A DNA stretch of 64,000 bases, taken from positions 71,872 to 135,871 of the forward strand of contig CAVYFE010000010.1 in assembly GCA_963767695.1 (NCBI GenBank), written 5' to 3'. The position numbers and the translations under genes were made by a program. The stretch's first letter is position 1. Each line of letters opens with the position of its first letter. Shown here one piece after another: positions 22,263-56,580 of this stretch. The DNA is from an uncultured Solirubrobacterales bacterium (lineage in GTDB: Bacteria; Actinomycetota; Thermoleophilia; Solirubrobacterales; Solirubrobacteraceae). The notes under the pieces were generated by a model. It saw only the letters and a list, made by a program, of their open reading frames with translations. It was not told the origin of the DNA and ran no database searches.

Positions 22263-23180
22263 GTGTCTGGAACAGTCGGTGTCATTGTCCTGGTCGTTGG
22301 GATCGGCGTGGTCGTGCTCGCGGCCGACATGTTCGTCGACGGCCTGCTCGGGGTCGCCCGAAAGGTGGGGATCGCGCCATTCGTACTCTCGGTCGCCCTC
22401 TCTGGATTTGAGACCGAGAACCTAGCCGCCGGGATCGCGGCCAACGCGAAGGGCTTGCCTGGAGCGGCGGCCGGCACATTCCTGGGCGGCGTCACGTTCG
22501 TGGCGCTAGGCGTGGCCGGTCTCGGCGGGCTGATCGCACCGATCCGCGTGGAGCTACCTGCGCGCTTCGCCGTTTGGACCGCGATCGCCCCGCTGCCGCT
22601 GCTCGGGTTCGCGATCGACGGGCGCCTCTCGCGCCCAGAAGGCGCACTCCTCGTGGTCTGGTCGGTTGTGGCGCTGGTTGGGCTGGCACGTTCGGGACGG
22701 GCGCTGCTCGCCGTCGAGGACGAGGAGCGCGTCCGGCGGCCCGCCCTGCGACTCCTTGCTGGACTGGGGCTTCTGACGGGCGGGGGATGGCTGATCGGCG
22801 AGGGTCTTCGCACTACCGTGCGCCAGCTGGGCGTCCCGCAGACGCTGCTTGGCAACACCGCGCTGGCGGCCACGGTCGAGGCCGAGGAGCTCGCACGCTT
22901 TGCGGTGCCGGCCCGTCGCGGACGCCCCGAGATCGGCCTCGGCAACATTGCCGGAACCGTTGTCCACTTCGCGGCGCTCAACGCCGGCATCATCGCGCTC
23001 GTCAAACCCCTCACGCTCGGGCACGACACCACCCGCTTCTACCTGCCGGTCGCGGCCGCCAGCCCCGCGGTCCTCGCCGCGCTGCTCCTTGCGCGCAAAC
23101 AGCTGGGGCGGACCGAAGGCGCGGCGCTGACCGGCCTCTACGCCGCCTATGTCGCAGCCGCGATCATCATCTCGACCTGA
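22263..23180 (+). CDS. CaCA-family (Na+/Ca2+ exchanger-like) cation antiporter with atypical alpha-repeats
   Basis: ~10 TM helices in two internal repeats; GFETENL and TVEAEEL at alpha-repeat positions, followed by GNIAGT-type motif. Confidence 0.7.
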   Translation: MSGTVGVIVLVVGIGVVVLAADMFVDGLLGVARKVGIAPFVLSVALSGFETENLAAGIAANAKGLPGAAAGTFLGGVTFVALGVAGLGGLIAPIRVELPARFAVWTAIAPLPLLGFAIDGRLSRPEGALLVVWSVVALVGLARSGRALLAVEDEERVRRPALRLLAGLGLLTGGGWLIGEGLRTTVRQLGVPQTLLGNTALAATVEAEELARFAVPARRGRPEIGLGNIAGTVVHFAALNAGIIALVKPLTLGHDTTRFYLPVAAASPAVLAALLLARKQLGRTEGAALTGLYAAYVAAAIIIST

Positions 23181-23185
23181 ACTCG

Positions 23186-23956
23186 CTAGGCCGCGGTCCG
23201 GGCCTCGATCAGGCTGGCGATGGATAGACGCCGCCGGCACATCTCCACAGCCTCCTGCCGGGTTGCCGCGGGCACGGCGTCGCCCCATGCCGCCGCCGCC
23301 TCGTCCGCACGGTCCAGCACGTTGCTAACGGAGTCCGCGGATCCATCCTCGATCAGGCAGCGCAGGCCGAAGCCGACGTGCCAGCGCTCGTCGAGCTCGA
23401 TGTGCCCCACGCCCTCGCGAATTCCGGGCAGGGCACCGTCGGCCAGATCGTCGAGCAACGCACGTTGGCCGGCGGCGAAGACGGCCCCCTCGAGCACCAT
23501 GTGGTAGAGGGCGACGCCGTCGACCAGTCGGGTACGGCCCGCCGCGAGCTCGGCGGCCATTGCAGGCAGCCGCATCTCGAAGAGCTCGAGCAGGGCGGCC
23601 GGGACGTGCGCCCGGGCCGCGGCGCGCCGCTCGGCCGGGGCATCTCCGGGCAGCCCGAGCACGTCGGCAGCGATGCGGTCGAAGAGCAGCGCGTGGCGGT
23701 CCTCGTCGCGACGCTGGAGAAAGAAGACCCACATCAGCATGCTGTCTACGGTCTCGGTCACATCGGCGAACGGCAAGAGGTGCTCAGCGACGGCGTCCTC
23801 GGCCACGCGGAAGCCGGCGAGAAGCGTGGTGAGGCGGCGACGGCGCTCGACCGGGAGCCCGGGCCACGCCCGAGCGTCGGGGGCGAGGTCGATAGCCGCC
23901 GCATCCCAATGCAGACGAGCCACGATCTGGGAGTACGTCGCGAGCCTCGGGAACAT
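23186..23956 (-). CDS. R2-like ligand-binding oxidase (R2lox, ferritin-like dimetal protein)
   Basis: AEDAV, DEDRH, YHMVLEG, DERWH. Confidence 0.8.
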   Translation of the reverse strand: MFPRLATYSQIVARLHWDAAAIDLAPDARAWPGLPVERRRRLTTLLAGFRVAEDAVAEHLLPFADVTETVDSMLMWVFFLQRRDEDRHALLFDRIAADVLGLPGDAPAERRAAARAHVPAALLELFEMRLPAMAAELAAGRTRLVDGVALYHMVLEGAVFAAGQRALLDDLADGALPGIREGVGHIELDERWHVGFGLRCLIEDGSADSVSNVLDRADEAAAAWGDAVPAATRQEAVEMCRRRLSIASLIEARTAA

Positions 23957-24121
23957 CAACAGCTCAGAGCGGTCAGCGGTGGGAACGCTGAGACCACCTG
24001 GTCCCATGTTGGGATGTGCTTTCACGACCTACGAGGTTGGGATCGGTTGCGCCATCAAAGATAGCTTGCCGCATAGGCTTGGGAACCGGCGACGACGGAC
24101 GCAACCGACCGCGCACATCGC

Positions 24122-25219
24122 TCAGACACGCGCCGGTCGCTTCATCGTGCGATAGACGAACTCCTCCGTCTGCGCCGACTCGCGTGCCGTGATGACGCGG
24201 CCGTGATGTGGCGAGAACCGGCACACCGGGTCCGTGGCCGCCGCGTCGCCCGTCAGCCGCAGGGCCTGGCAGCGGCAGCCGCCCCAATCCACCTCTTGCT
24301 GTCCGAGCGGGCACGAGCCGCACGGCTCCTGCATCCAGCCCGTACCCCGGAAGCGCGCGAACGCGTGGGACTCGTTCCAGATCCATTCCAGGGGGTGCTC
24401 GCGGACGTTGGCGAACTCGAGCCCCGGAATCGTCGACGCCGCCTGGCAGGGCAACGCGTCGCCGTTCGGGGCGAGCACCATCGCCGTCCGGCCCCAGCCG
24501 CCCATGCATGGCTTCGGCAGCTCCTCGTAGAGGTCGGGGAGCACCCAGAGCACGTCGACTTGTGGTCCGACGCGCTCGCGGAAGCGCTTGACCGCTTCCT
24601 CCCCGCGTCGAAGCTGCTCCCACGACGGCAGGAGCGCCTCCTGGTTGACAACCGCCCAGCCGTAATACTGGGCGTTGGCAAGCTCGAGCCGCTGGGCCCC
24701 GAGATCGAGGGCGAGCTCGAGCAGCTCCTCGATGCGATCGAGGTTCTGCCTGTGCAGGACGCAGTTGATCGTCAGCGGGAAGTCGAGCTCCTTGACGAGG
24801 CGCGCAGCCGCGATCTTCTTCTCGAACGATCGGTTCCCCGCGATGCGGTCGTTGTCCTCTGCGTCCGGGCTTTGAATCGAGATCTGCACGTGGTCGAGCC
24901 CGGCGGCCTTGAGCGCCTCTGCGCGCTCGCGCGTGAACAGGGTGCCCGCGGTGATCAGCGACGAGTAGAGACCGGCGTCGCGCGCGGCCGCGCACAGCTG
25001 AACCAGGTCGCGGCGCAGCATCGGCTCGCCGCCAGTCAGCGCGAGCTGAAGGACGCCGAGCCCGCTCGCTTCCCGGAACACCCGGATCCAGTCCTCGGTC
25101 TCGAGTTCCCGGCGGTACCTCTCGCCGCCGATGTCCACCGGATTTGAGCAGTAGGGGCAGTGGAGTGGGCACCGGTAGGAAAGCTCGGCGATCAGCGTGA
25201 ACGGCCTAAGCTGCTGCAT
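24122..25219 (-). CDS. pqqE: PqqA peptide cyclase, radical SAM/SPASM
   Basis: ELSYRCPLHCPYCSNP, LTGGEP, PKPCMGGWG, DWGGCRCQA. Confidence 0.97.
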   Translation of the reverse strand: MQQLRPFTLIAELSYRCPLHCPYCSNPVDIGGERYRRELETEDWIRVFREASGLGVLQLALTGGEPMLRRDLVQLCAAARDAGLYSSLITAGTLFTRERAEALKAAGLDHVQISIQSPDAEDNDRIAGNRSFEKKIAAARLVKELDFPLTINCVLHRQNLDRIEELLELALDLGAQRLELANAQYYGWAVVNQEALLPSWEQLRRGEEAVKRFRERVGPQVDVLWVLPDLYEELPKPCMGGWGRTAMVLAPNGDALPCQAASTIPGLEFANVREHPLEWIWNESHAFARFRGTGWMQEPCGSCPLGQQEVDWGGCRCQALRLTGDAAATDPVCRFSPHHGRVITARESAQTEEFVYRTMKRPARV

Positions 25220-25469
25220 CGATCAGGAGTCCTCTCTGGGCCATGGCGTCGAGGAGCCCTCGGACGTCGTCGCGCAGGTCGGCGCCGGCGTACCGCGCAG
25301 CGAGGACGCCGACGATGTCGTCGAGCGATCGCTGTCCGTCGCACAGCTCGAGCACCTCCGCCGCGGTGGGATTGAGCCGCACGGCCCCCTCAGGGACCAG
25401 CAGCAGGTGCTCCTCGCGCACCTCGTCATACCGCAGTCGCGCGCCGGTGACGAGGCGAGGCCGAGTCAT
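25206..25469 (-). CDS. pqqD: PQQ peptide chaperone
   Basis: LRYDEVREEHLLLVPEGAVRLNPTAAEVLELCDG. Confidence 0.95.
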   Translation of the reverse strand: MTRPRLVTGARLRYDEVREEHLLLVPEGAVRLNPTAAEVLELCDGQRSLDDIVGVLAARYAGADLRDDVRGLLDAMAQRGLLIDAAA

Positions 25470-26203
25470 GCGGCACGGCCTGGCGGCTGCGTGTCGCCGC
25501 GCTCGATGGCGTCGAGTTGCGTCCAAAGCATCTCGGTCTTGAAGCGGAGCGCCGCGACCGCCGCGTTTTGTTGCTCGCGCGTTCGGCAGCGTTCGACCGT
25601 GAGCTCGAGCGCATACTGCGCGTCACGTGGCGCCTTCACGAGCCGGGTCTGGAAGTACTCCAGGCCAGCGGGGTCGATCCACGCGTAGTGGCGCTTGAGT
25701 GCCTCGAGCCGCACCTGGATCGCGGCCGGTCCGAACAGCTCGGTGAGCGATGAGGCGACCGCGTCGAGCCACGGCTTCTGGCGCGCGAAGTTCACGTAAG
25801 CATCAACCGCGTAGCGCACCGCCGGGAGCACATGCCGCTCGGACCCCAGTTCTGCTCGCGAGACGCCGAGCGCCTCGCCGAGCCGGAGCCACGACTCGAT
25901 GCCGCCCGTTCCCTCCGTTGTCCCGTCGTGGTCGATGATCCGCTGGATCCACTCGCGTCGGACCTCGACCTCGGGGCAGTTCGACAGGATCGCCGCGTCC
26001 TTCAGCGGGATGCACTTCTGGTAGTAGAAGCGGTTTGAGACCCAGCGCTGCAGCTCCTCGCGGGTGAGCTCTCCCGCGTCCATTCTCCTGTGGAAGGGAT
26101 GCAGATTGTGGTAGCGCGTTCCCTGGGCGCGCAGCTCGGCGATGAACTCCTCGGGCAGCGCCGGCGCGCTCTCGCCCGTCGGTCTCGTGGCAGTCTCAGT
26201 CAC
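25466..26203 (-). CDS. pqqC: Pyrroloquinoline-quinone synthase
   Basis: YHNLHPFH, NRFYYQKCIPLKDAAILSNC, RIIDHDG, AVDAYVNF. Confidence 0.97.
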   Translation of the reverse strand: MTETATRPTGESAPALPEEFIAELRAQGTRYHNLHPFHRRMDAGELTREELQRWVSNRFYYQKCIPLKDAAILSNCPEVEVRREWIQRIIDHDGTTEGTGGIESWLRLGEALGVSRAELGSERHVLPAVRYAVDAYVNFARQKPWLDAVASSLTELFGPAAIQVRLEALKRHYAWIDPAGLEYFQTRLVKAPRDAQYALELTVERCRTREQQNAAVAALRFKTEMLWTQLDAIERGDTQPPGRAA

Positions 26204-27129
26204 AGCTCGACCTCGAGGCCATCGTAGGCGACTTCGATCCCTGCGCGGGTGACCGCCCCCCGCTCGGGAGAGTCATCGAGCAGGATCGGGTTGGTGTTGT
26301 TGATGTGGACGAGCGCCTTGCGCGGTCGCTCCAGCCGCGCGAGCGCCTCGAGCGTCCCGCCGGGACCTGAGAGCGGCACGTGGCCCATCTCCCGCGCGCT
26401 CCGAGGCGAGATGCCGAGTCGGGCGAGCTCATCGTCGCGCCAAAAAGTGCCGTCGACGAGCACGAGATCGCTGGTGGCGAACCGGGAGAGCACGTCGTTG
26501 TCCAATCGGGCGAGACCGGGGGCGTAGGTCACGACCCCTCCACCCGCGCGGTCCCGAAAGACAAACCCGCTCGCGCCGAGCTCCAGATCCGACCCGTCCT
26601 GATAGCGCGGAGGGTCACCGCCCACGTCGAACGCCTCGACGCTGAGGCTCGACCCCTCGAGCGGACTGGGCAGCTCTGGTTCCAGCCTCCGCCACTCGGC
26701 GCCGCAATAACGGTCGAGAATCGGCAGCACGGGATATCCCTGCCTCAGCGCGCGCTCGACACCCTCGTCGCCGTATACGCGCACCGGCGTCGCCGACTCC
26801 CGCAGGAGCAGAAGCCCTGCCGTGTGATCGATCTCCGCGTCAGTCAGGAGCACGCCGGCGATCGGTGACGCGCGGACACCGTCGACCCGCGGAGGCACGA
26901 TCGCTGCAAGCTGCTGGCGCGCGTCCGGCGAGGCGTTTACGAGAAACCAGGGTCCCTCGCCGCCACGGATCGCCAGCGACGACTGCGTACGGGGTCGCGC
27001 ACGCGCACCCGCGCGCGCAGCCTCACATGTCGGGCAATGGCAATTCCACTGCGGAAACCCTCCGCCAGCGGCCGAGCCGAGAATCAGAACGCGCACGCGG
27101 CAGAAGAACCGGTTCGTAGCCCCAGGCAA
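26200..27129 (-). CDS. pqqB: PQQ biosynthesis hydroxylase (start may be ~27096)
   Basis: LGSAAGGGFPQWNC, RTQSSLAI, LTDAEIDH, VHINNTNP. Confidence 0.96.
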   Translation of the reverse strand: MPGATNRFFCRVRVLILGSAAGGGFPQWNCHCPTCEAARAGARARPRTQSSLAIRGGEGPWFLVNASPDARQQLAAIVPPRVDGVRASPIAGVLLTDAEIDHTAGLLLLRESATPVRVYGDEGVERALRQGYPVLPILDRYCGAEWRRLEPELPSPLEGSSLSVEAFDVGGDPPRYQDGSDLELGASGFVFRDRAGGGVVTYAPGLARLDNDVLSRFATSDLVLVDGTFWRDDELARLGISPRSAREMGHVPLSGPGGTLEALARLERPRKALVHINNTNPILLDDSPERGAVTRAGIEVAYDGLEVEL

Positions 27130-27158
27130 GCACCGGAGGCCACGCCGGCTTCAGCGTC

Positions 27159-27233
27159 CTACCGGTGGTACAGGTAGGAGGTGACCTCCGAGCACATCTC
27201 GATGAACTCAAACTCCGGCTTGGTCCACACCAT
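27159..27233 (-). CDS. pqqA: PQQ precursor peptide
   Basis: MVWTKPEFEFIEMCSEVTSYLYHR with the E-x3-Y core, directly upstream of pqqB. Confidence 0.93.
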   Translation of the reverse strand: MVWTKPEFEFIEMCSEVTSYLYHR

Positions 27234-27310: not shown

Positions 27311-28724
27311 ATGATGCGCGTCGAGGTAACCGCGGGCGACCCGGACACGAGCGGCGCCGACCTCGTCGCAGTCGCGGCGGGAGCGCGGGCCTCGGAGCTC
27401 GGCGCCCCCGAGCGCGCGATCGCGGACGCCGATCCGGTCGCGATCGTCTATCAGCACTCGGCCCACCCCGGCGCCCCGCTCGCTGTCGTCGCGCTCGAGC
27501 CGGACGCCGAGGGACTGCGGACGGCTGCGGCGCGGGCAGTGCGCGCGTGCAGGGGTGGCGGGACTGTCGTGTGGGCGCTCGATGCATCCCTGCCGGTCAC
27601 CGTCGAGGAGCAGGTGCGGGCGCTGAGCGAAGGCGCCGTCATCGGCGGCTACGACGGCCGGCGCTGGCGAAGCGGCGAGCGGCCGCGCAGCGTGGAGCGC
27701 TTCGTGATCAGCGGCTGCGGCGGGGAGCTCGCACCCGTGGCCGATCGCGCCGCGCTCGTCGCGCGCTGGACGAACACCGCTCGCGAGCTCGTCGACGCCC
27801 CACCCAACGTGATGTCACCGACCGCGCTCGCGGACCGGGCGGCGGAGTTTGCGGGGCTCGCGGAGCGAGAGCATCGACCCCGCCGAGGCGGGGCTTGGCG
27901 CGCTCGCCGCGGTCGGCGCGAGCAGCCCGGCCGCGCCGCTGCTCCTGGTCCTCCGGCACGAGTCACCCGACGCGCAGGATGCACCGCGGCTGGCGCTCGT
28001 CGGCAAGGCTGTCACGTTCGATACGGGGGGCTACTTCCTCAAGTCGCAGACGGACATCGTCCGCCAGAAGGCCGATATGGCGGGCGGCGCGGCGGTCGTG
28101 GCAGCGCTCGGCGCGATCGCCGAGCTGGGGCTCCCGCTGGCGGTCACCGGTGTCGTACCGGCCTGCGAGAACATGCTCAGCGGCAGCGCAATGCGTCCGA
28201 CCGACGTCATCCCGACAGCTTCCGGCCTCACCGTCGAAGTGACGAATCCTGACGCTGAGGGGCGTCTGATCCTGGCGGATGCCCTGTGGTACGCGCGCCG
28301 CGACGGCGCGACCCACCTCGTGGACTTAGCGACCCTGACAGGCGCGTTGCGCGCCGGCATGGGCGATCTCTACGCCGGCGTCTTCGCGACAGACGAATCG
28401 TGGCGCGACGCCGTCGTCGATGCGGGCAACGCAAGCGGCGATCTTGCCTGGCCGTGGCCGCTTCACCCGCGCTATCGACCACTGATCGACTCGACGGTGG
28501 CCGACCTGCGCAACACAGCCGGAAAGAGCTTCGGCTTCCCGATTGTCGCCGCGACGTTCTTGGCGCAGTTCGCTGGCCAGGGGCCGTGGGCACACGTCGA
28601 CATGCTGGGCCCCGCGCTGCTCGACGAGGACCGCGGCGACGCGTTCGGGCGCGGCGCGACTGGCTATGGCGTCCGCCTGCTGGTCGAGCTCGCGACGCGC
28701 CTGAGCGCCGCGGCGACAACGTGA
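27311..28724 (+). CDS. M17 leucyl aminopeptidase family (apparent frameshift ~27860)
   Basis: LVGKAVTFDTGG, KADMAGGA, ENMLSG, NPDAEGRLILAD, DLATLTGA. Confidence 0.88.
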
Positions 28725-28752: not shown

Positions 28753-29367
28753 ATGGATGTCGGAGGTCGCGATCCGCAAGCTGCGACCGCTATCACGCTC
28801 GGACGGGTCGTCGACGCCTCCAAGTTCGACTTCGCCGCCGCGGAGCGCGCCGCGCTGGAGTTGCTGCGCGCGATTGGCGCCGACGTCGCCTCTCCGGCTC
28901 TGCTCGAGACTCCGCGCCGGGTCGCCGCCTCCTTCGTCGAGCTGGTCACGCCCGCCGAGCTCGGCGCGACCTTATTTCCGAATGAAGGCTGCTACGACGA
29001 GCTCGTGGTGGTGCGCGATATCCCGTTCCACACGCTGTGCATGCATCACCTGCTGCCGTTCCACGGTTGTGCCCACGTCGGGTATCTGCCGGGAGAGTGC
29101 ATCATCGGGATATCGAAGCTCGCGCGCGTGGTCGAGGCGTTCGCCCGGGACCTGCAGCTGCAAGAGCGCCTGACGGTGCAGATCGCCGATTGGCTGGAGC
29201 AGGAGCTCGCGCCGCGGGGCGTGGGGGTGGTGCTCAGCGCGGAGCATATGTGCATGACGATCCGCGGCGTCCGCAAGCCGGGGGCTCGAACCGTCACCTC
29301 GGCGCTGCGCGGCTCACTGCGCGACGATGCGCGCACGCGCCAGGAGTTCCTCAGCCTTGTCGGCTGA
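28753..29367 (+). CDS. folE: GTP cyclohydrolase I (FolE type)
   Basis: ETPRRV, FHTLCMHHLLPF, ISKLAR, QLQERLT, AEHMCM. Confidence 0.95.
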   Translation: MDVGGRDPQAATAITLGRVVDASKFDFAAAERAALELLRAIGADVASPALLETPRRVAASFVELVTPAELGATLFPNEGCYDELVVVRDIPFHTLCMHHLLPFHGCAHVGYLPGECIIGISKLARVVEAFARDLQLQERLTVQIADWLEQELAPRGVGVVLSAEHMCMTIRGVRKPGARTVTSALRGSLRDDARTRQEFLSLVG

Positions 29368-29386
29368 AACCGGTGAGCAGAGACCG

Positions 29387-42406: not shown

Positions 42407-42439
42407 CGGCGTCACAATACGAGAGGGAGGTACACAAGC

Positions 42440-49926: not shown

Positions 49927-49947
49927 CGCGCAGCGACCGAAGCCATT

Positions 49948-50017: not shown

Positions 50018-50581
50018 GTGTTCGCGCTTATCTCTCTCGGGTTTACCCTGAGCCTGGACAACTTCCGCAGCTCGCTCGTGCTGGGGGGGCTTAAGCCGAC
50101 CTTCCTTCAATCGGTCAAGACATCCGCCATCTTTGGCCTGTGGGATGGCGTCGCACCGGCGGTCGGGATCCTCATCGGCCACTTCCTGAGCGACAAGATC
50201 GACAACACCGCCGACACGTTCGCAATGATCGGCCTTGGTACATACGGCCTGTTCCTCATCGTCCGGGCGGTGATCGCACCCGAGCGCGCGGATCCAAACC
50301 TGACGTGGGCGAGGCGCGGGCTGCCGCTCCCCCTGAGCGTTGACAACGTCGCCGCCGGCACGGCGCTTGGCCTCGCTGGGTTCTCCCCCTGGCTCGCGCC
50401 CATCGTGTTTGGGGTCATCACCTTCGCGGTGTCGGTCGCCGGGCACCAGATCGGCCGCACAGTGGCGCACTTCGTCGACTTCATCCCCCGCATCAACACC
50501 GACCTGTTGACCGGGATCGCGTTCGCCGCAATAGCAGCCTTGATGGCACTCGGTGTTACGCTCCCGCTCTCGGGCGGCTGA
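50018..50581 (+). CDS. MntP-family metal efflux protein
   Basis: Two repeats LSLDNF and LSVDNV; ~6 TM helices. Confidence 0.8.
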   Translation: MFALISLGFTLSLDNFRSSLVLGGLKPTFLQSVKTSAIFGLWDGVAPAVGILIGHFLSDKIDNTADTFAMIGLGTYGLFLIVRAVIAPERADPNLTWARRGLPLPLSVDNVAAGTALGLAGFSPWLAPIVFGVITFAVSVAGHQIGRTVAHFVDFIPRINTDLLTGIAFAAIAALMALGVTLPLSGG

Positions 50582-50607: not shown

Positions 50608-50903
50608 CTAACCGCGGCCGATCAGATCCATCAGGATCCGCCCCAGCTCGGAGGCGTCGCGGGCGACGGCGTCGGCATCCGTCAGTGCGTCGCGCTCAAA
50701 CGGGCCGCTCGCCACCGCCACGCAGCGGACTCCATCCGCGCGCGCGCGATTTCGCCGTCGCTCCGCCCAGCCGTCGGGATGGGCGTCCGGATGAGGCTGG
50801 TGTCGACTCCGTGCACCTCTCGCAGGGCCGCGGCCAGTGCCTCACCCACCAGCGGCGCCGTGCCTTCTATCAGCGTTCCGTCGATGTCGAACAGTAGAAG
50901 CAC
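50608..50903 (-). pseudogene. Internally deleted HAD phosphatase paralog
   Basis: LLFDIDGTL...GEIARA joined out of frame to ADGVRCVAVASGPF...DAVARDASEL, paralleling both ends of the HAD at 56577-57323. Confidence 0.8.
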
Positions 50904-50914
50904 CGATGCCCTCG

Positions 50915-50957
50915 CAGCTCGGGGATGCTGGCGATCACAGCTCAGGGATGCTGGCGA
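50915..50957 (+). repeat. 20-bp direct repeat, 23-bp period, upstream of the Fe-ADH operon
   Basis: CAGCTCGGGGATGCTGGCGA and CAGCTCAGGGATGCTGGCGA. Confidence 0.8.
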
Positions 50958-51039
50958 CCGTGGACATGTCAGCGCCCTGCCGTGACTGGCAGCCGCCAGA
51001 TCGGTAGGATCGCATGGCAACCGGCTGAGGAGGCAAGGA

Positions 51040-52341
51040 TTGGAGCAGTTGACCCCTACACCTCCCGCGATGGCAGAGGGCCTGCCCCCGGCGTCCACCG
51101 CGGTCGCCCCCGCGTCCTCCGCAGCCGCCTCCGAGTCGTCTGAAGCCGCCGCTGCGCCCTCGGAAGCTGCGCCGGCGCTGCAGCCGCTGCGCGGGCGGGT
51201 TAGCAAGTTCGTGATCCCGGAGGTGATCTTCGGCGTAGGCACCCTGGCGGAGGTGGGCGGCGCGGTCCGCCGAGTCGGCGGCCGGCGCCCGATGCTCGTG
51301 AGTGATCCGGGCGTGCTGGCCGCCGGCTGGGTCGAGCGCGCGATGCCGCACCTCGCCAACGTGCGCGTTCAGTGGCGACTGTGGCACGACCTGACGCCCA
51401 ACCCCAAGGACATCGAGGTCGAGGCGGCGTTCGAGAGCTACCTCGAAAGCGGCTGCGACGCGCTCCTCGCAATCGGTGGTGGGAGCTGCATCGACCTCGC
51501 CAAAGCGGTGGCGATCCTCAGCGGCAACGGCGGCCAGATCCTCGACTACGAGGGCATCGACCGCGCCACCAGCCCGATCCCGCCGATGGTGATGGTCCCG
51601 ACGACCGGTGGCTCGGGATCGGACGTGTCCCAATTCTGCGTGGTGACCGACACCAGGCGACGGTTCAAGGCGACGATCGGAGGCCGCGCGCTCGTCCCCG
51701 AGATCTCCTTGACAGACCCGGAGCTGCTGACCACGATGTCCCCCGAGCTGACCGCGCACACCGGGATCGATGCGCTCAGCCATGCGATCGAATCTTCGGT
51801 GTCCGAAGCCTGCGACTTCCTGAGCAAGGGGCTCGCGATCGCCGCGGTTCGGGCGATCGTTGAGCACCTGCCGGCGGCGGTCGAGAATCCGCTCGATCTC
51901 ACGGCGCGCGAGGGTATGGCACGGGCGAGTCTGCAGGCCGGGATGGCGTTCACCAACGCGCTGCTCGGTGCGACGCACGCGATCGCCCACCAGATCGGTG
52001 GTGCGCTCGACCTTCCGCACGGGCTGCTCAACGCGATCCTGATACCGCACGTGATGCGCTTCAACGCCGAGACCCACGCCGACCGCTACGTCGACGTGGC
52101 GAGAGCGCTGGGAATCGAGACCGATGGGCTCGATGCCAGCACCGCCGCCGAGCGGGCAATCGACCGCGTCGAGGAGCTCAGCCGAGCCCTGGGGATTCCC
52201 AGCGGGCTGAAGGAGATCGGCGTCCATCCGGCCGACTTCGACACGTTCGCGGTCAACGCGCTCCGCGACGCCTACATCGCGACCAACCCGAGGCCAGTCG
52301 GGGAGGACGATGTCCGCCGCATCTGCATCGCCGCCTACTGA
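51040..52341 (+). CDS. Iron-containing (type III) alcohol dehydrogenase family
   Basis: PEVIFGVG, GGGSCID, PTTGGSGS, DALSHAIE, HAIAHQ, HGLLNA; Ala/Ser-rich N-extension. Confidence 0.93.
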   Translation: MEQLTPTPPAMAEGLPPASTAVAPASSAAASESSEAAAAPSEAAPALQPLRGRVSKFVIPEVIFGVGTLAEVGGAVRRVGGRRPMLVSDPGVLAAGWVERAMPHLANVRVQWRLWHDLTPNPKDIEVEAAFESYLESGCDALLAIGGGSCIDLAKAVAILSGNGGQILDYEGIDRATSPIPPMVMVPTTGGSGSDVSQFCVVTDTRRRFKATIGGRALVPEISLTDPELLTTMSPELTAHTGIDALSHAIESSVSEACDFLSKGLAIAAVRAIVEHLPAAVENPLDLTAREGMARASLQAGMAFTNALLGATHAIAHQIGGALDLPHGLLNAILIPHVMRFNAETHADRYVDVARALGIETDGLDASTAAERAIDRVEELSRALGIPSGLKEIGVHPADFDTFAVNALRDAYIATNPRPVGEDDVRRICIAAY

Positions 52342-53662
52342 CCAGCCCCCGGCCGTCGACCGGTTGGCGCTCGAGCGCCTGATCGGCGTCCGCTCCTCCA
52401 AGCCGAGCTTCTACGCCGCCTGGCGCGACAAGTCCGCCCGGCTCGACCACACGATCGAGACGCTCGAGTGGATCTCGGCCGCTCTGTGCGCCACTCCCGA
52501 CGGACCGGGGGCCCTGTGCGACGCGGTGGTCGAGGCCGCCGCTCACCACTTCAACTCGCCCTGGGCCGTGATGATGTTCTCGGGCGCCGATGCCGGCGAG
52601 GCTCTTCCCAGGGTCATCGTCCACACCCGCGGCGAGGTCGTCCAGCGCTGGGACGCACCGGCGTCCGCGCTGGCGGAGCTCGCCCAGCGAACGCTCGTCG
52701 CTGAGCGGCCCGTGGTTGTGGCCGAGAACGAGCGGTACGCGCTAGGCGCGGCGGTGGGTGGCGAGCCATGCGCTGCGGTGGCGGCGCCGATGCCAGTCCG
52801 CGGGGAGCTCGCTGGGATGCTCGCCGTGGGGCTGCCGGCTGACGCCCAGGTCGAGCCGAGCGATCTCTCGATCCTGCTGACGCTCGCCAACCACGCCGGC
52901 GTCGCCCTCCACAACGCGTGGCTGTTCCAGGAGAACGAGCGGCGCGCGGCCGAGCTCGAGCGGCGGAGCACGGAGCTCGAGGGCATCCGGCGACGGCTCG
53001 AGCACGCCGGCCGGCGCCAGCTGCTGAGCGCGGAGCGCAACCGCATCGCCCGTGAGCTGCATGACAGCGTCGCCCAGCACTTGTTGACGATCGGCATGAA
53101 CCTCGAGTGGTGCCGCCGCCACGAGTCGACCTCGTCTCCGGTGCTGGAACGCGTGTCGGCGGCGCAGTCCCTCGCGCGCGCGGCCGTGGCCGAGATCCGC
53201 GAGGTGATCTTTGAACTCGCAAGCGACGGCCAGATCGAGCTACGCGGCGCGCTCCGCGACGTGATCAAGGACGTCGAGGCGGGCACACGTCTCGAGGTCG
53301 GGCTCCGGGCGTACGGCGAGACGCATCCGGTCGCGGCGATCACGCAGCACGCGCTCGTGCAGATCGCCCGCGAGGCGCTATTCAACGTCGTCCGTCACGC
53401 GGATGCGGCCCACGCCTGGGTGACGCTCCGATGGCGGCCTCACGTCGTGTCGCTCGCGGTCGCCGACGATGGGCGCGGGCATCCGGTGGAGCTCCACCGC
53501 CATCTTCTCTCTCCGCATCCCTCGGGCGAGCATCTCGGGCTCGCTGGGATCGCGGACCGGGTGCGCGGCCTGGGCGGGACGGCGTGGTTCGAGCGCCGCC
53601 GTGGCGGCGGCGTCAGGCTGAAGGTCGAGGTCCCCCTGGGAGGCACAGTTGGTATCGCCTGA
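52310..53662 (+). CDS. Soluble GAF-HisKA_3 sensor kinase, MnoS/MadS-like
   Basis: LERLIGVRSSKPSFY, ERNRIARELHDSVAQ, EALFNVVRHA, DDGRG, HLGLAGI; no TM helix. Confidence 0.88.
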   Translation: MSAASASPPTDQPPAVDRLALERLIGVRSSKPSFYAAWRDKSARLDHTIETLEWISAALCATPDGPGALCDAVVEAAAHHFNSPWAVMMFSGADAGEALPRVIVHTRGEVVQRWDAPASALAELAQRTLVAERPVVVAENERYALGAAVGGEPCAAVAAPMPVRGELAGMLAVGLPADAQVEPSDLSILLTLANHAGVALHNAWLFQENERRAAELERRSTELEGIRRRLEHAGRRQLLSAERNRIARELHDSVAQHLLTIGMNLEWCRRHESTSSPVLERVSAAQSLARAAVAEIREVIFELASDGQIELRGALRDVIKDVEAGTRLEVGLRAYGETHPVAAITQHALVQIAREALFNVVRHADAAHAWVTLRWRPHVVSLAVADDGRGHPVELHRHLLSPHPSGEHLGLAGIADRVRGLGGTAWFERRRGGGVRLKVEVPLGGTVGIA

Positions 53663-54326
53663 GGCTGTCGACGCGCCCGCCCGCGTGCTGCTTGTCGACG
53701 ATCACGCGATCGTCCGCCGCGGTCTGCGCTCGATCCTCGAGCTCGAGCCCGATGTCTCGGTGGTGGCCGAGGCGGGCGGCCGCAGCGAGGCGCTCCGCGC
53801 GCTCGACCAGGCCAAGCCGGACATCGTGCTGCTCGACCTCAAGCTGAGCTCCGACCACGACGCCGAGGGCCTCGACCTGTGCAGCGAGATCCTCGAGCGC
53901 CGGCCGCAGTCGAACGTCGTCGTCCTGTCGACGTTCCTGGACGAGGGTCTGCTCAATCAGGCGCTTCGGCGCGGCGCCAAGGCATACGTGCTCAAAGAGG
54001 TCGACGTCGTCGAGCTCGTGCGGATCATCCGCGCCGTGTCGCGCGGCGGGTCCGCGTTCGACGGCCGCAGCGCGGCCATGGTCAGGGCACTCGTCGCCGG
54101 CGAGCACGCGCGGGCGGAGCCGGTATTGACCGAGCGCGAGCGCGAGGTCACCAGGCTGATCGCCGGCGGGCTGACCAACCGTGAGATCGGCCACCGCATC
54201 TTCGTGAGCGAAAGCACCGCCAAGTTCCACGTCCGCAACGTGATGCGAAAGCTCGGCGTCCAGAGCCGCGCGGAGGTCGCGTACACCGCCGGCAAGCGCG
54301 GCCTGCTGGACGAGTCGTTGCACTAG
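53649..54326 (+). CDS. NarL/LuxR-type response regulator, MnoR/MadR-like
   Basis: LLVDDHAIVR, LLDLKL, AYVLK, LTERERE, GLTNREI, TAKFHVRN. Confidence 0.92.
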   Translation: MVSPEAVDAPARVLLVDDHAIVRRGLRSILELEPDVSVVAEAGGRSEALRALDQAKPDIVLLDLKLSSDHDAEGLDLCSEILERRPQSNVVVLSTFLDEGLLNQALRRGAKAYVLKEVDVVELVRIIRAVSRGGSAFDGRSAAMVRALVAGEHARAEPVLTEREREVTRLIAGGLTNREIGHRIFVSESTAKFHVRNVMRKLGVQSRAEVAYTAGKRGLLDESLH

Positions 54327-54492
54327 CGCGCCCGGTCACCCGGGCCGGGGTGCGAATACGACATGACCCCTGGCGATCGGCTGGTGCCGCCGAGCTCACG
54401 GATCGATTTGGCGATGAAGCCCGCCACGCGATCCTCAGGCTCTCGGGTTCCCCGCCGCTCGGTCCAGGTGGCGCGGGATAACCTCCTACCCG

Positions 54493-55881
54493 ATGTCCAC
54501 GACCTTCGCTGCCGCGAAGCTCGAGCGAGTGCCGCTCGACTGCAGGCTCGCGCCGCAGGATGCGTTGCGCGCGATCAACGACCAGCCTTGGCCGTTTGCG
54601 CTGACCGGCGACTGGGCCGGGGGTGGGTCGATCGTCGGTTCGAGCCCGCTCGTCGTCGCCGACCCCGACGCCGACCCGTTTGCCTTACTGGACGCGCTGC
54701 CCTCCGTCGGGGGGCACGCGGACGCCGGATCGGTCGGCGGCGGGTGGTTCGGGTGGCTCGGGTACGGACTCGGTCGTCGCATCGAGGACCTGCCGGCGGG
54801 TCCGCCGCGACCCGTTGCGCTGCCCGATTTCCACCTGGCCTATTACGACCACCTGCTGCGCCTCGACCGATTCGGGCAGTGGTGGTTCGAAGCGCTGGTC
54901 AGCACCGGCGCGGAGGACCGTATCGGGCGCCGCCTGGAGGATCTGCGGGCGCGCCTTGCTACTCCTCGGCGCTCCGAGCAGGTCTACGTTGCTCCCGAGC
55001 GGTTTCGTCTCAGCCACACCGACAAGAGCCGTCACATGGCAGCGGTCGAGGAATGCATTGAGCGCATCGTCGCCGGCGAGATCTACCAGGCCAACATCTG
55101 CCTGCGACTCGAAACGCGGTGGCGCGGCTCCGTCACGGAGCTGTACGCACGGGCGCTGGACCGGATCTCGCCCACCCGCGGCGGCGCCTTTGGGACGCCA
55201 TGGGGCGGGATCGCGAGCCTGTCTCCGGAGCTGTTTCTGCGCCGCGTGCGCGATGCGGTCGTGACCGCGCCGATCAAGGGCACGATCAAGCGCCCCGAGG
55301 ACGAGGGAATCGCGCAGGCAGCGCTCGCGGCGCTCCGCCGTTCCGCGAAGGATGCCGCCGAGCACGTGATGATCGTCGACCTGATGCGCAACGACCTGGG
55401 TCGGGTATGCGCGTACGGGACGATCCAGGCGCCACGGGCGCCCGAGGCCGAGTCGCATCCAGGCGTCTGGCACCTGGTGTCCAAGGTGCGCGGCCGTCTG
55501 CGCCCCGGGGTCGGCAACGGAGACCTCCTGCGCGCCACGTTCCCGCCCGGCTCGGTGACGGGAGCGCCGAAGGTCCAGGCGATGCGCGTCATCTCCGAGC
55601 TCGAGCAGACCGGCCGAGAGGTGTACACGGGCGGGATCGGATTCGCGAGCCCGGTGGCGGGGCTCGAGCTCAACGTCGCGATCCGCACCTTCGAGCAACG
55701 CGACAGCCGACTGTGGCTGGGTGCCGGCGGCGGGATCGTGGCCGATTCCGATCCGGAGCACGAGTTCGAGGAGGCTCTGGTCAAGGCGGATCCGCTCGTC
55801 ACCGCAATCGGCTCTCGCATCGCCCCGGACGCGTGGGACGGCTCACGGATCCCAGCCGGCAGCGCTGAGAGCCGTACGTAG
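54493..55881 (+). CDS. pabB: Aminodeoxychorismate synthase component I
   Basis: GEIYQAN, SPELFL, PIKGT, KDAAEHVMIVDLMRNDL, FPPGSVTGAPK, YTGGIG, LNVAIRT. Confidence 0.9.
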   Translation: MSTTFAAAKLERVPLDCRLAPQDALRAINDQPWPFALTGDWAGGGSIVGSSPLVVADPDADPFALLDALPSVGGHADAGSVGGGWFGWLGYGLGRRIEDLPAGPPRPVALPDFHLAYYDHLLRLDRFGQWWFEALVSTGAEDRIGRRLEDLRARLATPRRSEQVYVAPERFRLSHTDKSRHMAAVEECIERIVAGEIYQANICLRLETRWRGSVTELYARALDRISPTRGGAFGTPWGGIASLSPELFLRRVRDAVVTAPIKGTIKRPEDEGIAQAALAALRRSAKDAAEHVMIVDLMRNDLGRVCAYGTIQAPRAPEAESHPGVWHLVSKVRGRLRPGVGNGDLLRATFPPGSVTGAPKVQAMRVISELEQTGREVYTGGIGFASPVAGLELNVAIRTFEQRDSRLWLGAGGGIVADSDPEHEFEEALVKADPLVTAIGSRIAPDAWDGSRIPAGSAESRT

Positions 55882-56580
55882 GACCGCCACGACAGGGCTA
55901 TGACGGTGCGGTGACGGACCGTCGTGGAGCGCGGCGGCCACCGCGTATCGCAGCGACGACGTCAGAAAGATGGCATCCGCCTCGCGAGCGCGGTCGATCG
56001 AGATCGGCTCCGTCGATGCTTTCAGCCCCAGTGCCGGGGCGCATTCGAGCAGGAGCGAGCGAGTGATGCCAGGTAGCAACCGTCCGTCGGCAGCGGGTGT
56101 GACGATGCATCCATCCTCGACGATCCAGACGTTCGCCCAGGCTGCCTCGAGCACGTCGCCCTCGACGTCGACGATCAGGAGTGCGGATCCCGTGGAGCTC
56201 AGATTGTCGAGGAGGCGTCGGTCGCACCACTTGTATCGGCCCAGCCCACCCGGCATGAGGACCGGTGCCAGCATGATCGCCGACTGTGGCCCTGGCGCCG
56301 AGAAGGGCTCCGTCTCGATCCGCACCACGAGGCGGCCAGGCGCGGGGCGCGCGCACACCCGCAGCCGGTGTTCACCCATCAGCTGTCGGGCGATCCGGCG
56401 CGCGCGATCCTCCAGATCGTGCGGCAGTGGCTGGCCGTACAGATCGCATACCGCAGCGGCGAGACGCTCGATGTGCCGGTCGAGCGCCTGCAGACGGCCG
56501 TCGCGCACCGCGAGCGTCTCGAACACGCCGCGGTCGGGGTCGGGTCGCGGCCCGACCGCTGGGACCTTCGTGAATGTCAC
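55843..56580 (-). CDS. pabC: Class IV aminotransferase / aminodeoxychorismate lyase-like
   Basis: RGVFETL, RHIERL, YKW, EAAWANVW, LPGITR, FLTSS; overlaps the pabB 3' end. Confidence 0.75.
   Translation of the reverse strand: MTFTKVPAVGPRPDPDRGVFETLAVRDGRLQALDRHIERLAAAVCDLYGQPLPHDLEDRARRIARQLMGEHRLRVCARPAPGRLVVRIETEPFSAPGPQSAIMLAPVLMPGGLGRYKWCDRRLLDNLSSTGSALLIVDVEGDVLEAAWANVWIVEDGCIVTPAADGRLLPGITRSLLLECAPALGLKASTEPISIDRAREADAIFLTSSLRYAVAAALHDGPSPHRHSPVVAVLRTALSAAGWDP

Follow-up and report, generated by a model that had tools for sequence, protein, structure and literature searches.

Gene content of the locus

A C1/alcohol-oxidation block occupies 24.1-56.6 kb of the window (the whole stretch of 64,000 nucleotides analyzed here) and contains pqqABCDE, a PQQ alcohol dehydrogenase, fae-mtd-mch-fhcBADC, an ErcA-like protein with a two-component system, as well as most of the genes for methanopterin, methanofuran and PABA synthesis. 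Genes were identified from NCBIfam/TIGRFAM and Pfam profile scores against curated cut-offs together with PDB matches; FhcB, MfnB, MfnE, MptN and several others scored under the curated equivalog cut-offs. Every element named in a first-pass annotation was recovered close to its reported position with strong profile scores, but that inventory had omitted pqqA, the MSMEG_3727-family partner, the MntP-like membrane protein and the ErcA-like regulator. The PQQ synthesis genes and their neighbors are:

22263-23180, plus: CaCA-type cation (Ca2+/Na+) antiporter-like membrane protein (TIGR00367/NF008005, E 4e-14, far under cut-off)
23186-24025, minus: ferritin-like/R2-like oxidase-like protein (NF006200, 62.9 bits, under cut-off)
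24122-25219, minus: pqqE, radical-SAM PQQ synthesis enzyme (TIGR02109, 498.5 bits, cut-off 381)
25206-25469, minus: pqqD, peptide chaperone (TIGR03859, 77.1 bits, cut-off 46)
25466-26203, minus: pqqC, PQQ synthase (TIGR02111, 323.1 bits, cut-off 240)
26200-27129, minus: pqqB (TIGR02108, 358.4 bits, cut-off 245)
27159-27233, minus: pqqA precursor peptide MVWTKPEFEFIEMCSEVTSYLYHR (E-x3-Y core, read in translation upstream of pqqB)
27554-28724, plus: M17 leucyl aminopeptidase, pepA (C-terminal half 305 bits; split near 27864)

The full pqqABCDE set is encoded and is predicted to make PQQ. Whether the antiporter-like gene belongs to the module is uncertain, and the ferritin-like gene immediately downstream of pqqE matched Pfam Ribonuc_red_sm weakly. 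Read through, PepA scored 356.8 bits over profile positions 94-503; the gene was found in only 41 of 67 relatives, and the aminopeptidase may act in trimming the PQQ peptide or have no connection with it.

The formaldehyde-to-formate route is encoded by:

34911-35862, minus: mch, methenyl-H4MPT cyclohydrolase (C-terminal half, profile 159-312; split near 35468)
35865-36681, minus: fhcC (TIGR03122, 208.9 bits)
36678-37583, minus: fhcD, formylmethanofuran:H4MPT formyltransferase (TIGR03119, 375.6 bits, cut-off 292.6)
37580-39229, minus: fhcA, amidohydrolase subunit (TIGR03121, 671.2 bits, cut-off 392.75)
39226-40449, minus: fhcB (TIGR03129, 188 bits, under cut-off 327.8)
42440-42952, plus: fae, formaldehyde-activating enzyme (TIGR03126, 249.4 bits, cut-off 118)
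45068-45928, plus: mtd, methylene-H4MPT dehydrogenase of the MtdA/B/C family (Pfam Mpt_N, 82.9 bits)

Fae matched its M. extorquens counterpart (1Y5Y) with 208.8 bits and Mtd matched M. extorquens MtdA (1LU9/6TGE) with 195 bits over residues 2-283, while the read-through products reached 373.7 bits for mch with one base removed (profile 1-312 of 313) and 219 bits for fhcC (profile 1-260 of 260). FhcA was closer to archaeal FwdA (8rja, 468 bits) than to M. extorquens FhcA (6s6y, 365 bits). FhcB keeps the C-x2-C-x3-C...C motif, its four cysteines being present in 76/76 relatives, but in the alignment to FwdB (5t5i_B) the catalytic Cys-His is missing. Judged from these genes, Fae, Mtd, Mch and FhcBADC make up a complete methanopterin/methanofuran route predicted to lead from formaldehyde to formate. 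As the first-pass annotation had stated, the called genes of the window scanned by profile included none for formate dehydrogenase, RuMP or the serine cycle.

Cofactor supply is represented by:

28753-29367, plus: folE, GTP cyclohydrolase I, pterin supply (TIGR00063, 192.3 bits, cut-off 181.6)
29357-29944, plus: DUF447 protein, known from methanopterin-linked gene islands (Pfam DUF447_N 71.2 and DUF447_C 41.8 bits)
29941-30906, plus: mptG, beta-ribofuranosylaminobenzene 5'-phosphate synthase (TIGR00144, 114.1 bits, cut-off 113.5)
30909-31628, plus: mfnB-like (5-formylfuran-3-yl)methyl phosphate synthase, methanofuran (NF002575, 190.8 bits, below the equivalog cut-off of 304)
31615-32256, minus: mfnE-like kinase, methanofuran (NF040622, 61.4 bits, under cut-off)
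32249-33253, minus: TIGR03123/MfnF-like H4MPT-linked C1 pathway protein (TIGR03123, 305.7 bits, cut-off 244)
33324-34025, plus: HisA/HisF-related protein of methanopterin islands (TIGR00734, 97.7 bits, under cut-off; His_biosynth 99.8 bits)
34015-34914, minus: mptN-like RimK-family tetrahydromethanopterin:glutamate ligase (NF040720, 211 bits, under cut-off)
40442-41542, minus: ATP-grasp protein, candidate MfnD-like ligase (Pfam ATP-grasp_3, 57.6 bits)
41545-42421, minus: CitG-like triphosphoribosyl-dephospho-CoA synthase homologue (Pfam CitG, 142.7 bits, profile 87-283; split near 42150)
42973-43735, plus: SDR oxidoreductase (as assembled, C-terminal half only; split near 43231-43237)
43728-45068, plus: dihydropteroate-synthase-like protein, methanopterin synthesis (TIGR00284, 154.2 bits, under cut-off)
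46088-46477, minus: pterin-4a-carbinolamine dehydratase (NF002017, 77 bits, cut-off 80)
46540-47559, plus: DUF1464 protein (Pfam DUF1464, 262.7 bits)
54493-55881, plus: pabB, aminodeoxychorismate synthase component I, PABA for methanopterin (NF004530, 394.8 bits, cut-off 383)
55843-56580, minus: pabC-like class IV aminotransferase/aminodeoxychorismate lyase (TIGR03461 and NF005886, about 56-58 bits, under cut-offs)

MptG, the enzyme of the first committed methanopterin step, also matched NF040726 (129.9 bits, under cut-off), and the mptN-like ligase matched TIGR00768 (188.2 bits, cut-off 143). The ATP-grasp protein had no NCBIfam match and was found in 78 of 80 relatives; read-through CitG had none at E 1e-10. 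The SDR protein, full length when read through, scored 107 bits (under cut-off) with the "pteridine reductase" profile NF006598 and is a candidate pterin reductase. The dihydropteroate-synthase-like protein further matched DUF6513 (Pfam, 76.6 bits) and, weakly, Pterin_bind.

The dehydrogenase and its conserved neighbors are:

47760-48212, plus: MSMEG_3727-family PQQ-associated protein (TIGR04339, 241.1 bits, cut-off 75; PF23509, 235 bits)
48226-49926, plus: PQQ-dependent alcohol dehydrogenase, PedH/ExaF-like (TIGR03075, 592.7 bits, cut-off 480)
50018-50581, plus: MntP/YtaF-like membrane protein, putative metal transporter (Pfam Mntp, 52.1 bits)
51211-52341, plus: ErcA-like iron-type alcohol dehydrogenase (NF041833 ErcA, 432.2 bits, cut-off 550)
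52364-53662, plus: sensor histidine kinase, NarX/LiaS type (NF047786, 307 bits, under cut-off 500)
53685-54326, plus: NarL/LuxR-type response regulator (NF047785, 274.9 bits, cut-off 300)

The ErcA-like protein is probably a regulatory or sensor protein. The MSMEG_3727-family protein, in which the NDD-N-HC and GNDEG motifs are invariant in the alignment, is a candidate partner of the dehydrogenase; its structural model was poor (pLDDT 52) and gave weak, non-significant matches to cupredoxin-like folds.

Host and conservation of the island

The closest relatives of both GyrB (85-93% identity) and FhcA (79-92%) were Solirubrobacterales/Solirubrobacteraceae MAGs, which places the host in the Solirubrobacterales, class Thermoleophilia, in agreement with the earlier suggestion of a probable member of this class. 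The contig had also been considered potentially chimeric; gyrB and fhcA were found on a single contig in two long-read relatives and the junction region was tiled at 99-100% identity by a short-read soil metagenome, so it is not.

H4MPT genes had been described as sporadic in the phylum. This does not hold for the Solirubrobacterales, in which FhcA relatives were found in 136 species-level genomes and the gene order of the island was kept in all 80 relatives inspected. As judged by synteny, at least 80 species-level genomes share the island as a conserved trait, and probably all 136 do. Flank counts rest on the 70 of these 80 relatives with a complete flank: fae, mtd and DUF1464, the latter between mtd and the dehydrogenase module, were present in 70/70. 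Methanol stable-isotope probing has placed 13C label in Solirubrobacteraceae (PMC9258066), and 13C-methanol DNA yielded a Solirubrobacteraceae MAG (PMC10994693).

Relationship between the two modules

The first-pass annotation had coupled PQQ alcohol oxidation to the H4MPT route. Both modules are present, and the MSMEG_3727-family and dehydrogenase genes adjoin fae/mtd in 68 of the 70 full-flank relatives; the coupling itself and methanol as substrate are what we infer. The dehydrogenase matched PDB entries 6zcv/6zcw with 364-366 bits, and the ethanol dehydrogenases PedH, ExaA and qhEDH scored 364, 315 and 318 bits, whereas methanol dehydrogenases reached 245-291 bits (XoxF about 290, MxaF about 245). 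Methanol is thus a tentative substrate, since the enzyme is nearest to lanthanide-type PedH and not to XoxF or MxaF. The motifs WDYD, whose extra Asp is typical of lanthanide enzymes, and LCCGNVNRG, with vicinal cysteines, were found in 120/120 homologues, and the Glu, Asn and Asp-x-Asp of PedH are kept in the alignment.

Because the closest relatives of known structure are ethanol dehydrogenases and the regulator is of the ErcA type, the substrate may instead be ethanol, the product of which needs no Fae; ErcA-type regulators are part of ethanol-oxidation systems. The two modules might then stand independently side by side, one an ErcA-controlled dehydrogenase for ethanol or higher alcohols and the other detoxifying formaldehyde that arises elsewhere, for example from demethylations or methylated amines. 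Cultured Solirubrobacter sp. URHD0082 carries the dehydrogenase-pqq module, also adjoined by the MntP-like gene, but within 10 kb of it there are no methanopterin genes, and the modules can therefore exist apart; in 2 of the 70 relatives fae/mtd had no dehydrogenase in the flank. However, adjacency in the other 68 species-level genomes is kept at ~83% DNA identity, at which unselected order is expected to erode, and lanthanide ethanol dehydrogenases such as ExaF act on methanol and formaldehyde as well (PMC6414531). Counting against the main reading, the homologous cassette of M. smegmatis was no substitute for mycofactocin-dependent growth on ethanol (PMC6529628). On balance we regard independence of the modules as a serious but unlikely alternative to a coupled pathway.

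Location of the dehydrogenase

Oxidation entirely in the cytoplasm had also been proposed. The dehydrogenase begins with MATETEYVDAGEAV..., and its gene starts 13 nt past the preceding stop codon, which leaves no upstream room for a missed exon. Neither a hydrophobic leader nor a twin-arginine motif was found in it or in 116 full-length homologues (561-566 aa), with a mean Kyte-Doolittle value no higher than 1.58 for the most hydrophobic 12-residue stretch within the first 70 residues of these homologues. The absence of a leader lends the proposal support from sequence, and a cytoplasmic location is probable. To our knowledge every characterised PQQ alcohol dehydrogenase is extracytoplasmic, those of this family being periplasmic, and the vicinal disulfide of these enzymes, the cysteines for which are kept here, is unusual in a cytoplasmic protein. 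With this precedent and a conserved MntP-like membrane protein as neighbor, the dehydrogenase could lie outside the membrane through unrecognised export (hitch-hiking or a non-classical signal), leaving only the methanopterin part cytoplasmic. We consider this improbable, as the MSMEG_3727-family partner has no leader either and no CxxCH motif of a c-type cytochrome, as electron acceptor outside the cell, occurs in any called gene of the window.

Frameshifts

The frameshifts noted earlier in mch, citG and the SDR gene exist, each gene lying in two frames against its relatives, and further ones were found in pepA, likewise in two frames, the C-terminus of fhcC and dnaA. Each of the six lesions is one extra base, located at the split points given above for pepA, mch, citG and SDR and at 35954-35959 in fhcC; at all five island sites it is absent from every relative. 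Independent short-read contigs without the extra base were available for five of the six sites, the pepA site having no informative contig, and no contig spanning the mch, fhcC, citG or SDR site contained it. In mch the N-terminal half lies in the other frame; in fhcC the last ~28 codons are shifted and an X1 short-read contig lacks the base at 35954; citG regains a 300-codon stop-free frame on its removal and is free of it in X1 and X3 contigs, as is SDR in an X1 contig. After 21980 one base is missing relative to a short-read contig of 99.8% identity. By these comparisons the frameshifts are assembly errors and not decay, and the island is for this reason read as intact. Five frame-breaking insertions within 16 kb might suggest a decaying island and a dead pathway in this strain, as had been allowed for, but with the same defect in domain IV of the essential dnaA, and one-base removal restoring otherwise intact, full-length proteins, this is hardly credible.

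Proposed pathway

We give a probability of roughly 0.6 to the reading in which an uncultured Solirubrobacterales bacterium carries on its chromosome an island for C1/alcohol oxidation, inherited vertically, with a cytoplasmic dehydrogenase feeding the methanopterin route. In the cytoplasm the dehydrogenase would turn methanol, and possibly further small alcohols, into the aldehyde; Fae and H4MPT would capture formaldehyde immediately, and its oxidation to formate would yield NAD(P)H. Electrons of PQQH2 would exit by a non-cytochrome route, perhaps via the MSMEG_3727-family protein, which might equally be a metal-handling partner. Because FhcB lacks the catalytic Cys, the Fhc complex would hydrolyse formyl-methanofuran to formate with no oxidation to CO2, and the products of genes beyond the window would oxidise or assimilate formate.

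Solirubrobacterales are common Gram-positive soil bacteria. The leaderless PedH/ExaF-like dehydrogenase with WDYD, its pairing with an MSMEG_3727-family protein and the lack of a c-type cytochrome in the window are new details, and the island suggests that methanol/C1 oxidation in soil also follows a route that has gone unrecognised and is probably cytoplasmic.

Gene content of the window

Gene calls based on a codon-usage score were named with NCBIfam and Pfam profiles, and the PQQ and C1 block that the first-pass annotation had described was recovered by these matches at 24.1-56.6 kb. G+C content was 65-75% across the whole window, and an Rfam scan of the window returned a single tRNA and nothing else, rRNA being absent. 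The features are given below, with dciA and rnpA assigned by position alone through comparison with the locus of a relative (L084).

1-19.7 kb: standard replication-origin region, then a tRNA; Ser/Thr kinase, DUF4446, prephenate dehydratase, HNH, gyrA, gyrB, small ORF in the dciA position, recF, dnaN and dnaA, followed by rnpA, yidC, jag, rsmG, parA and parB
27159-27233: pqqA, not listed in the first-pass annotation
Island, PQQ synthesis: pqqE, pqqD, pqqC and pqqB, by profile matches
Island, cofactor genes: folE, DUF447, beta-RFAP synthase, mfnB-, mfnE- and mfnF-like genes, HisA/F-related gene, mptN-like gene
Island, C1 pathway: mch, fhcC, fhcD, fhcA, fhcB, ATP-grasp, CitG-like gene, fae
Island, further pterin genes: SDR, DHPS-like gene, mtd, pterin carbinolamine dehydratase, DUF1464
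47760-48212 (+), 48226-49926 (+): MSMEG_3727-family gene and PQQ dehydrogenase, which form the dehydrogenase module with an MntP-like membrane protein
Island, regulation and PABA: ErcA-like Fe-ADH, histidine kinase, response regulator, pabB, pabC-like gene

Scores lay far over the curated cut-offs for PqqE (498 bits), the dehydrogenase (593), Fae (249), FhcA (671) and FhcD (376), while several cofactor genes and FhcB fell under their equivalog cut-offs and are therefore to be read as "-like". An M17 leucyl aminopeptidase gene (27554-28724, +) lies head to head with pqqA/pqqB and occupied that position in 41 of 67 relatives; trimming of the PQQ precursor by this enzyme is possible, with conservation giving it no support. 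Between the MntP-like and ErcA-like genes, an ORF uncalled by the coding score (50682-51359, -) carries the HAD-phosphatase N-terminal motif LFDIDGTLI and extends into the stretch where the ErcA-like gene is predicted to start.

Host lineage and integrity of the contig

An FhcA search of one genome per GTDB species returned 136 relatives, the best 80 of which were all MAGs (79-92% amino-acid identity) labelled Solirubrobacterales, Solirubrobacteraceae or more broadly Actinomycetota. In a GyrB search the window's own protein was matched on a 201 kb contig, and the next relatives, at 93-85% identity, were Solirubrobacterales/Solirubrobacteraceae wherever named, in agreement with the actinobacterial host proposed from the sequence earlier. 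The housekeeping part and the island thus stand at equal distance to one set of relatives. In two long-read MAGs gyrB and fhcA were found on one contig, approximately 398 kb and 83 kb apart, and the origin-side order of one of these MAGs equals that of the window gene for gene. Contigs of a short-read soil metagenome (X1) tile the stretch between origin genes and island (17.5-27.5 kb) with an identity of 99-100% and uniform depth. Linkage, tiling and shared relatives together place the island on the chromosome of a Solirubrobacterales lineage, which rules out the chimeric contig that the first-pass annotation had considered, as well as contamination of the bin.

Frameshifts in the assembly

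Reading frames were checked by tblastn of the relatives' proteins against the window and by local DNA alignment. At five sites of the island the window is longer by a single base than each of the relatives:

~35468: mch
~42150: citG
~43231-43237: SDR
~27864: pepA
~35954-35959: fhcC, C-terminus

The extra base was missing from independent short-read contigs at the fhcC, citG and SDR sites and from every spanning short-read contig at mch (88-99% identity for these four sites), while none of the contigs was informative for pepA. Deletion of one base from mch, which is split as assembled, yielded 373.7 bits over profile positions 1-312 of 313, and fhcC treated in the same way covered positions 1-260 of 260. 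SDR and PepA were full length after single-base removal, and citG became a 300-codon stop-free frame, the restored CitG read-through having no NCBIfam match.

Similar breaks were observed outside the island. dnaA (12623-13987, -) is frameshifted near 12907 within DNA-binding domain IV, with "...VRELTE" in one frame and "...AIGAAFGGRNHATVLHAC..." in another, and a 97% identical X1 contig lacks one base at this site; this frameshift is the strongest sign that the indels of the window are assembly errors. A single ORF of 508 codons (15210-16736, +) covers both yidC and jag, whereas L084 has them apart (337 and 153 codons), and near 16250 a different frame contains a Lys/Arg-rich YidC tail that ends in a stop codon; the fusion is probably another indel. 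A 99.8% identical X1 contig (951 nt) carries an extra A after position 21980, so that the window may lack a base in 21434-22262, a poorly coding stretch just upstream of the island. An indel roughly every 10 kb, with an essential gene, dnaA, among those affected, is typical of an unpolished long-read assembly and not of gene decay. Pseudogenization, and with it the possibility raised earlier that the mch, citG and SDR frameshifts are real lesions, was rejected as highly improbable in view of the relatives, the short-read contigs, the broken dnaA and the restored full-length proteins. In the last 7 kb (57300-64000) many inter-gene gaps and truncated matches, among them an ABC1 kinase fragment (61283-61678, profile positions 29-152 of 244), suggest further indels.

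Conservation of the island among relatives

To 80 loci of relatives, 24 window proteins were compared by local tblastn. The same genes were present in the same order across these loci at a nucleotide identity of only about 83%. The fae-side flank was complete in 70 loci, all of which contained fae, mtd and DUF1464 (70/70), and the MSMEG_3727 gene together with the dehydrogenase was present in 68 of them. Similarly, mch, mptN and the HisA/F-related gene were found in 67/67 loci with a complete opposite flank, and the mfn, RFAP synthase, DUF447 and folE genes in 61-65 of these 67. The island is a stable lineage trait in Solirubrobacterales. The first-pass annotation had proposed cytoplasmic oxidation of alcohols and C1 compounds by PQQ- and methanopterin-linked enzymes, an interpretation judged largely right but in need of corrections, and had regarded methanopterin genes in this phylum as sporadic genome predictions, which does not hold for Solirubrobacterales given the gene content and order kept across 80 loci.

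The methanopterin and methanofuran pathway

Fae scored 249.4 bits against TIGR03126 (cut-off 118) and 208.8 bits against M. extorquens 1Y5Y. Mtd falls into the MtdA/B/C family (Pfam Mpt_N, 82.9 bits, cut-off 27) and matched MtdA over its full length with 195 bits. Fhc subunits A (671 bits), D (375.6) and C (208.9) were each over their cut-offs, while FhcB was under its own (188 bits vs 327.8), yet is syntenic and homologous to FwdB. The beta-RFAP synthase was barely over the cut-off of TIGR00144 (114.1 vs 113.5 bits) and under that of the equivalog NF040726. The SDR would occupy the expected place of dihydromethanopterin reductase. The methanopterin pathway is judged very probably functional.

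The enzymes (fae, mtdA/B, mch, fhcABCD) are those of Methylorubrum extorquens AM1, other proteobacterial methylotrophs and Planctomycetes, and the accessory families beta-RFAP synthase, DHPS-like, DUF447, HisA/F-related, RimK-like and CitG-like as well as ATP-grasp, TIGR03123, PCD and pabB are common to these islands. In contrast to them, the present island resides in a Gram-positive actinobacterial host, has the order fhcB-A-D-C-mch, and encodes an FhcA nearer archaeal FwdA (468 bits vs 365 for M. extorquens FhcA in the PDB) and an FhcB that keeps a four-Cys iron-sulfur motif. PDB matches of FhcB were archaeal FwdB/FmdB only, the M. extorquens FhcB chain not being matched at E 1e-3. That FhcA and FhcB (37580-40449, -) score higher against archaeal Fwd/Fmd subunits than against the M. 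extorquens Fhc complex (6s6y) hints that the actinobacterial pathway was no recent import from Proteobacteria.

Closer examination of FhcB (39226-40449, -) revealed the iron-sulfur pattern C-x2-C-x3-C...C at residues 9-34 in 76/76 relatives, while the catalytic Cys-His of FwdB aligns with G-P-W (residues 112-117; W115 in 73/76 relatives). Subunits A, B and C are homologous to those of archaeal FwdABCD/FmdABCD, and B retains their N-terminal iron-sulfur Cys motif. Unlike the archaeal complexes, the catalytic Cys-His is replaced, as in M. extorquens-type FhcB and as expected of a hydrolase complex, and the operon also contains an inserted formyltransferase gene, fhcD, a feature of Fhc complexes. 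FwdD-like subunit D, FwdF and FwdG were not found among the scanned window genes. Because FhcB lacks the catalytic Cys-His and no D subunit was found, the complex is read as a formate-releasing formyltransferase/hydrolase and not as a CO2-forming dehydrogenase, and the formate must consequently be handled by genes outside the window. A true formylmethanofuran dehydrogenase, with which no formate dehydrogenase would be needed, was rejected on the same grounds. An iron-sulfur cluster in a hydrolase-type Fhc complex would be unusual.

The PQQ dehydrogenase

The dehydrogenase belongs to the PQQ methanol/ethanol family (TIGR03075, 592.7 bits, cut-off 480). Its top PDB matches were the quinoprotein ethanol dehydrogenase structures 6zcv/6zcw (364-366 bits), which we take to be PedH of P. 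putida, followed by quinohaemoprotein and ExaA ethanol dehydrogenases (approximately 300-318 bits), XoxF (258-291) and MxaF (216-245). Metal and PQQ ligands including Glu, Asn and Asp-x-Asp are conserved in the alignment, in which WDYD of the dehydrogenase pairs with WDFD of 6zcv/6zcw, and WDYD and the vicinal Cys pair were present in 120/120 homologues. The second Asp of Asp-x-Asp, two residues past the catalytic Asp, marks lanthanide-dependent members, and by this motif the enzyme is predicted to be of the lanthanide type.

The gene starts 13 nt past the upstream stop, and the protein begins MATETEYVDAGEAVDF... with neither a hydrophobic N-region nor a twin-Arg motif, i.e. no Sec or Tat leader. 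Over 12 residues of the N-region, the Kyte-Doolittle mean reached 0.56 for the window protein and did not exceed 1.58 among 116 full-length homologues (561-566 residues), which likewise have no hydrophobic segment or twin-Arg. None of the called genes of the 64 kb window contains a CxxCH haem-c motif, and a dedicated c-type cytochrome acceptor was not found among them. The eight-bladed PQQ propeller, metal ligands and vicinal Cys-Cys are shared with PedH (P. putida), ExaF (M. extorquens) and XoxF; unlike these enzymes, the window dehydrogenase has no signal peptide, and neither a cytochrome c (XoxG/ExaB/PedF) nor a XoxJ-like protein is encoded next to it; an MSMEG_3727-family protein and the MntP-like membrane protein stand in place of such neighbours. 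Its N-terminus points to a probable location in the cytoplasm.

The MSMEG_3727-family partner

The partner gene (TIGR04339/PF23509, "MSMEG_3727 PQQ-associated" family; 241.1 bits to TIGR04339, cut-off 75) stops 13 nt ahead of the dehydrogenase gene, with pqqABCDE 21 kb off in the same window. Identity among the 120 family members listed was 72-94%, with invariant motifs N-D-D-x-N-x-H-C and G-N-D-E-G. A C-terminal G-Y-Y-W-Y...G-x-I-V-V stretch recalls cupredoxins, but without their Cys/His/Met ligands. The partner has no sequence relative in the PDB. AlphaFold2, given 30 sequences, produced a model of low quality (pLDDT 52), and a Foldseek search with it placed cupredoxin/CuA domains at the top, none significantly (E 0.013-0.05); a cupredoxin-like fold is kept as no more than a lead. 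The invariant motifs are carboxylate-rich (NDD-N-HC, NGD, GNDEG). They could bind a hard metal ion (Ca2+ or lanthanide) rather than copper, in which case the protein would be a metal chaperone and not an electron carrier.

The family is known from a PQQ cassette of Mycolicibacterium smegmatis (MSMEG_3721-3727), which was found by comparative genomics only, with function unassigned and no methanopterin genes reported alongside (Haft 2011, PMC3023750), and which did not stand in for mycofactocin in ethanol growth (Krishnamoorthy et al. 2019, PMC6529628). Common to both organisms are pqq genes and a single TIGR03075 dehydrogenase gene with an MSMEG_3727-family neighbour. Unlike the M. smegmatis cassette, the present pair is embedded in a methanopterin island, here as well as in 68 relatives.

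Regulatory genes

Downstream of the dehydrogenase come the MntP-like membrane protein and the ErcA-like protein, the latter directly ahead of the sensor kinase and the NarL-type regulator, a layout of ErcA-like protein, kinase and NarL-type regulator known from the Pseudomonas ethanol-oxidation regulon. As in the P. aeruginosa regulon (ExaA, ErcA/ErcS', response regulators), these genes lie beside a PQQ dehydrogenase. In contrast to that regulon, all three window regulators were under curated cut-offs, and the window contains no cytochrome c550 and no periplasmic context. The names MadS/MadR were rejected for the two-component pair, being below cut-off and derived from an enterococcal envelope-stress system, and "NarL-type" was kept.

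Proposed working of the island

Gene content, conservation and the missing export signals are established at the level of sequence, the genes are most probably intact, and on this footing we propose the following. PQQ would be synthesized and used in the cytoplasm, where the lanthanide-type dehydrogenase would oxidize methanol and perhaps other alcohols. The resulting formaldehyde would be converted to formate via Fae, Mtd, Mch and Fhc with a gain of NAD(P)H, while electrons of PQQH2 may exit by a non-cytochrome route, possibly involving the MSMEG_3727 protein. Expression would be controlled by the ErcA-like protein and the two-component system.

The main rival explanation is that the two modules are merely neighbours with different substrates, the dehydrogenase acting on ethanol and the methanopterin pathway on formaldehyde from other sources. 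The cultured Solirubrobacter sp. URHD0082 (GCA_000425945.1, KE384480.1 98637-120334) has a dehydrogenase 77% identical to that of the window in a cluster of MntP, an unknown 266-residue protein, MSMEG_3727, PQQ dehydrogenase and pqqC-D-E-B, which adjoins a P450/ferredoxin/reductase set and has no methanopterin genes within 10 kb. Between these explanations we lean slightly toward a dehydrogenase functionally coupled to the methanopterin pathway. The full reading, in which Solirubrobacterales are overlooked lanthanide-dependent methanol oxidizers with a cytoplasmic PQQ dehydrogenase, an MSMEG_3727 electron partner and formaldehyde entering a vertically inherited methanopterin pathway, is tentative, and we assign it a probability of roughly 0.3. 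URHD0082, a cultured Solirubrobacter with the dehydrogenase module, lends itself to experiments on the enzyme and makes the model testable.

Significance

In soil, Solirubrobacterales rank with the most abundant Actinobacteria. No paper on methanopterin genes, PQQ dehydrogenases or this island in the order was found in a search of open-access full text, a scope in which absence is not proof. "Actinomycetes" have been named among the holders of methanopterin C1 genes from unpublished genomes (Chistoserdova 2016, PMC5020050), and the terms methanol, PQQ and formaldehyde are absent from a comparative genomic study of Solirubrobacter (PMC10722151). In work on lanthanide enzymes in weathered rock, XoxF was not expected in Gram-positives since it is periplasmic (PMC10875860). 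Methanol probing found Solirubrobacteraceae 13C-labelled, the gene basis not being given (PMC9258066, PMC10994693). Each part of the island is of a known kind, namely the methanopterin pathway, the lanthanide-type PQQ dehydrogenases and the actinobacterial PQQ cassette. What appears new is the combination, with a leaderless dehydrogenase, lacking a cytochrome partner in the window, fixed beside a full methanopterin island in an abundant Gram-positive soil order.

This challenges a working assumption, as soil methanol surveys seek periplasmic XoxF/MxaF in Gram-negative bacteria, and the presence of the island in dozens of Solirubrobacterales species may explain the 13C-methanol labelling of that order. 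The dehydrogenase would, if the proposed reading is true, be the first cytoplasmic member of the PQQ alcohol dehydrogenase family. Since FhcA and FhcB look nearer archaeal than proteobacterial forms, a functional island would also matter for how methanopterin-linked C1 metabolism evolved, and would provide a first function for the MSMEG_3727 cassette of actinobacteria. It would further mean a large additional sink for methanol in soil and extend lanthanide biology to monoderm bacteria. Proof that methanol oxidation is cytoplasmic and lanthanide-dependent would make the finding highly significant.
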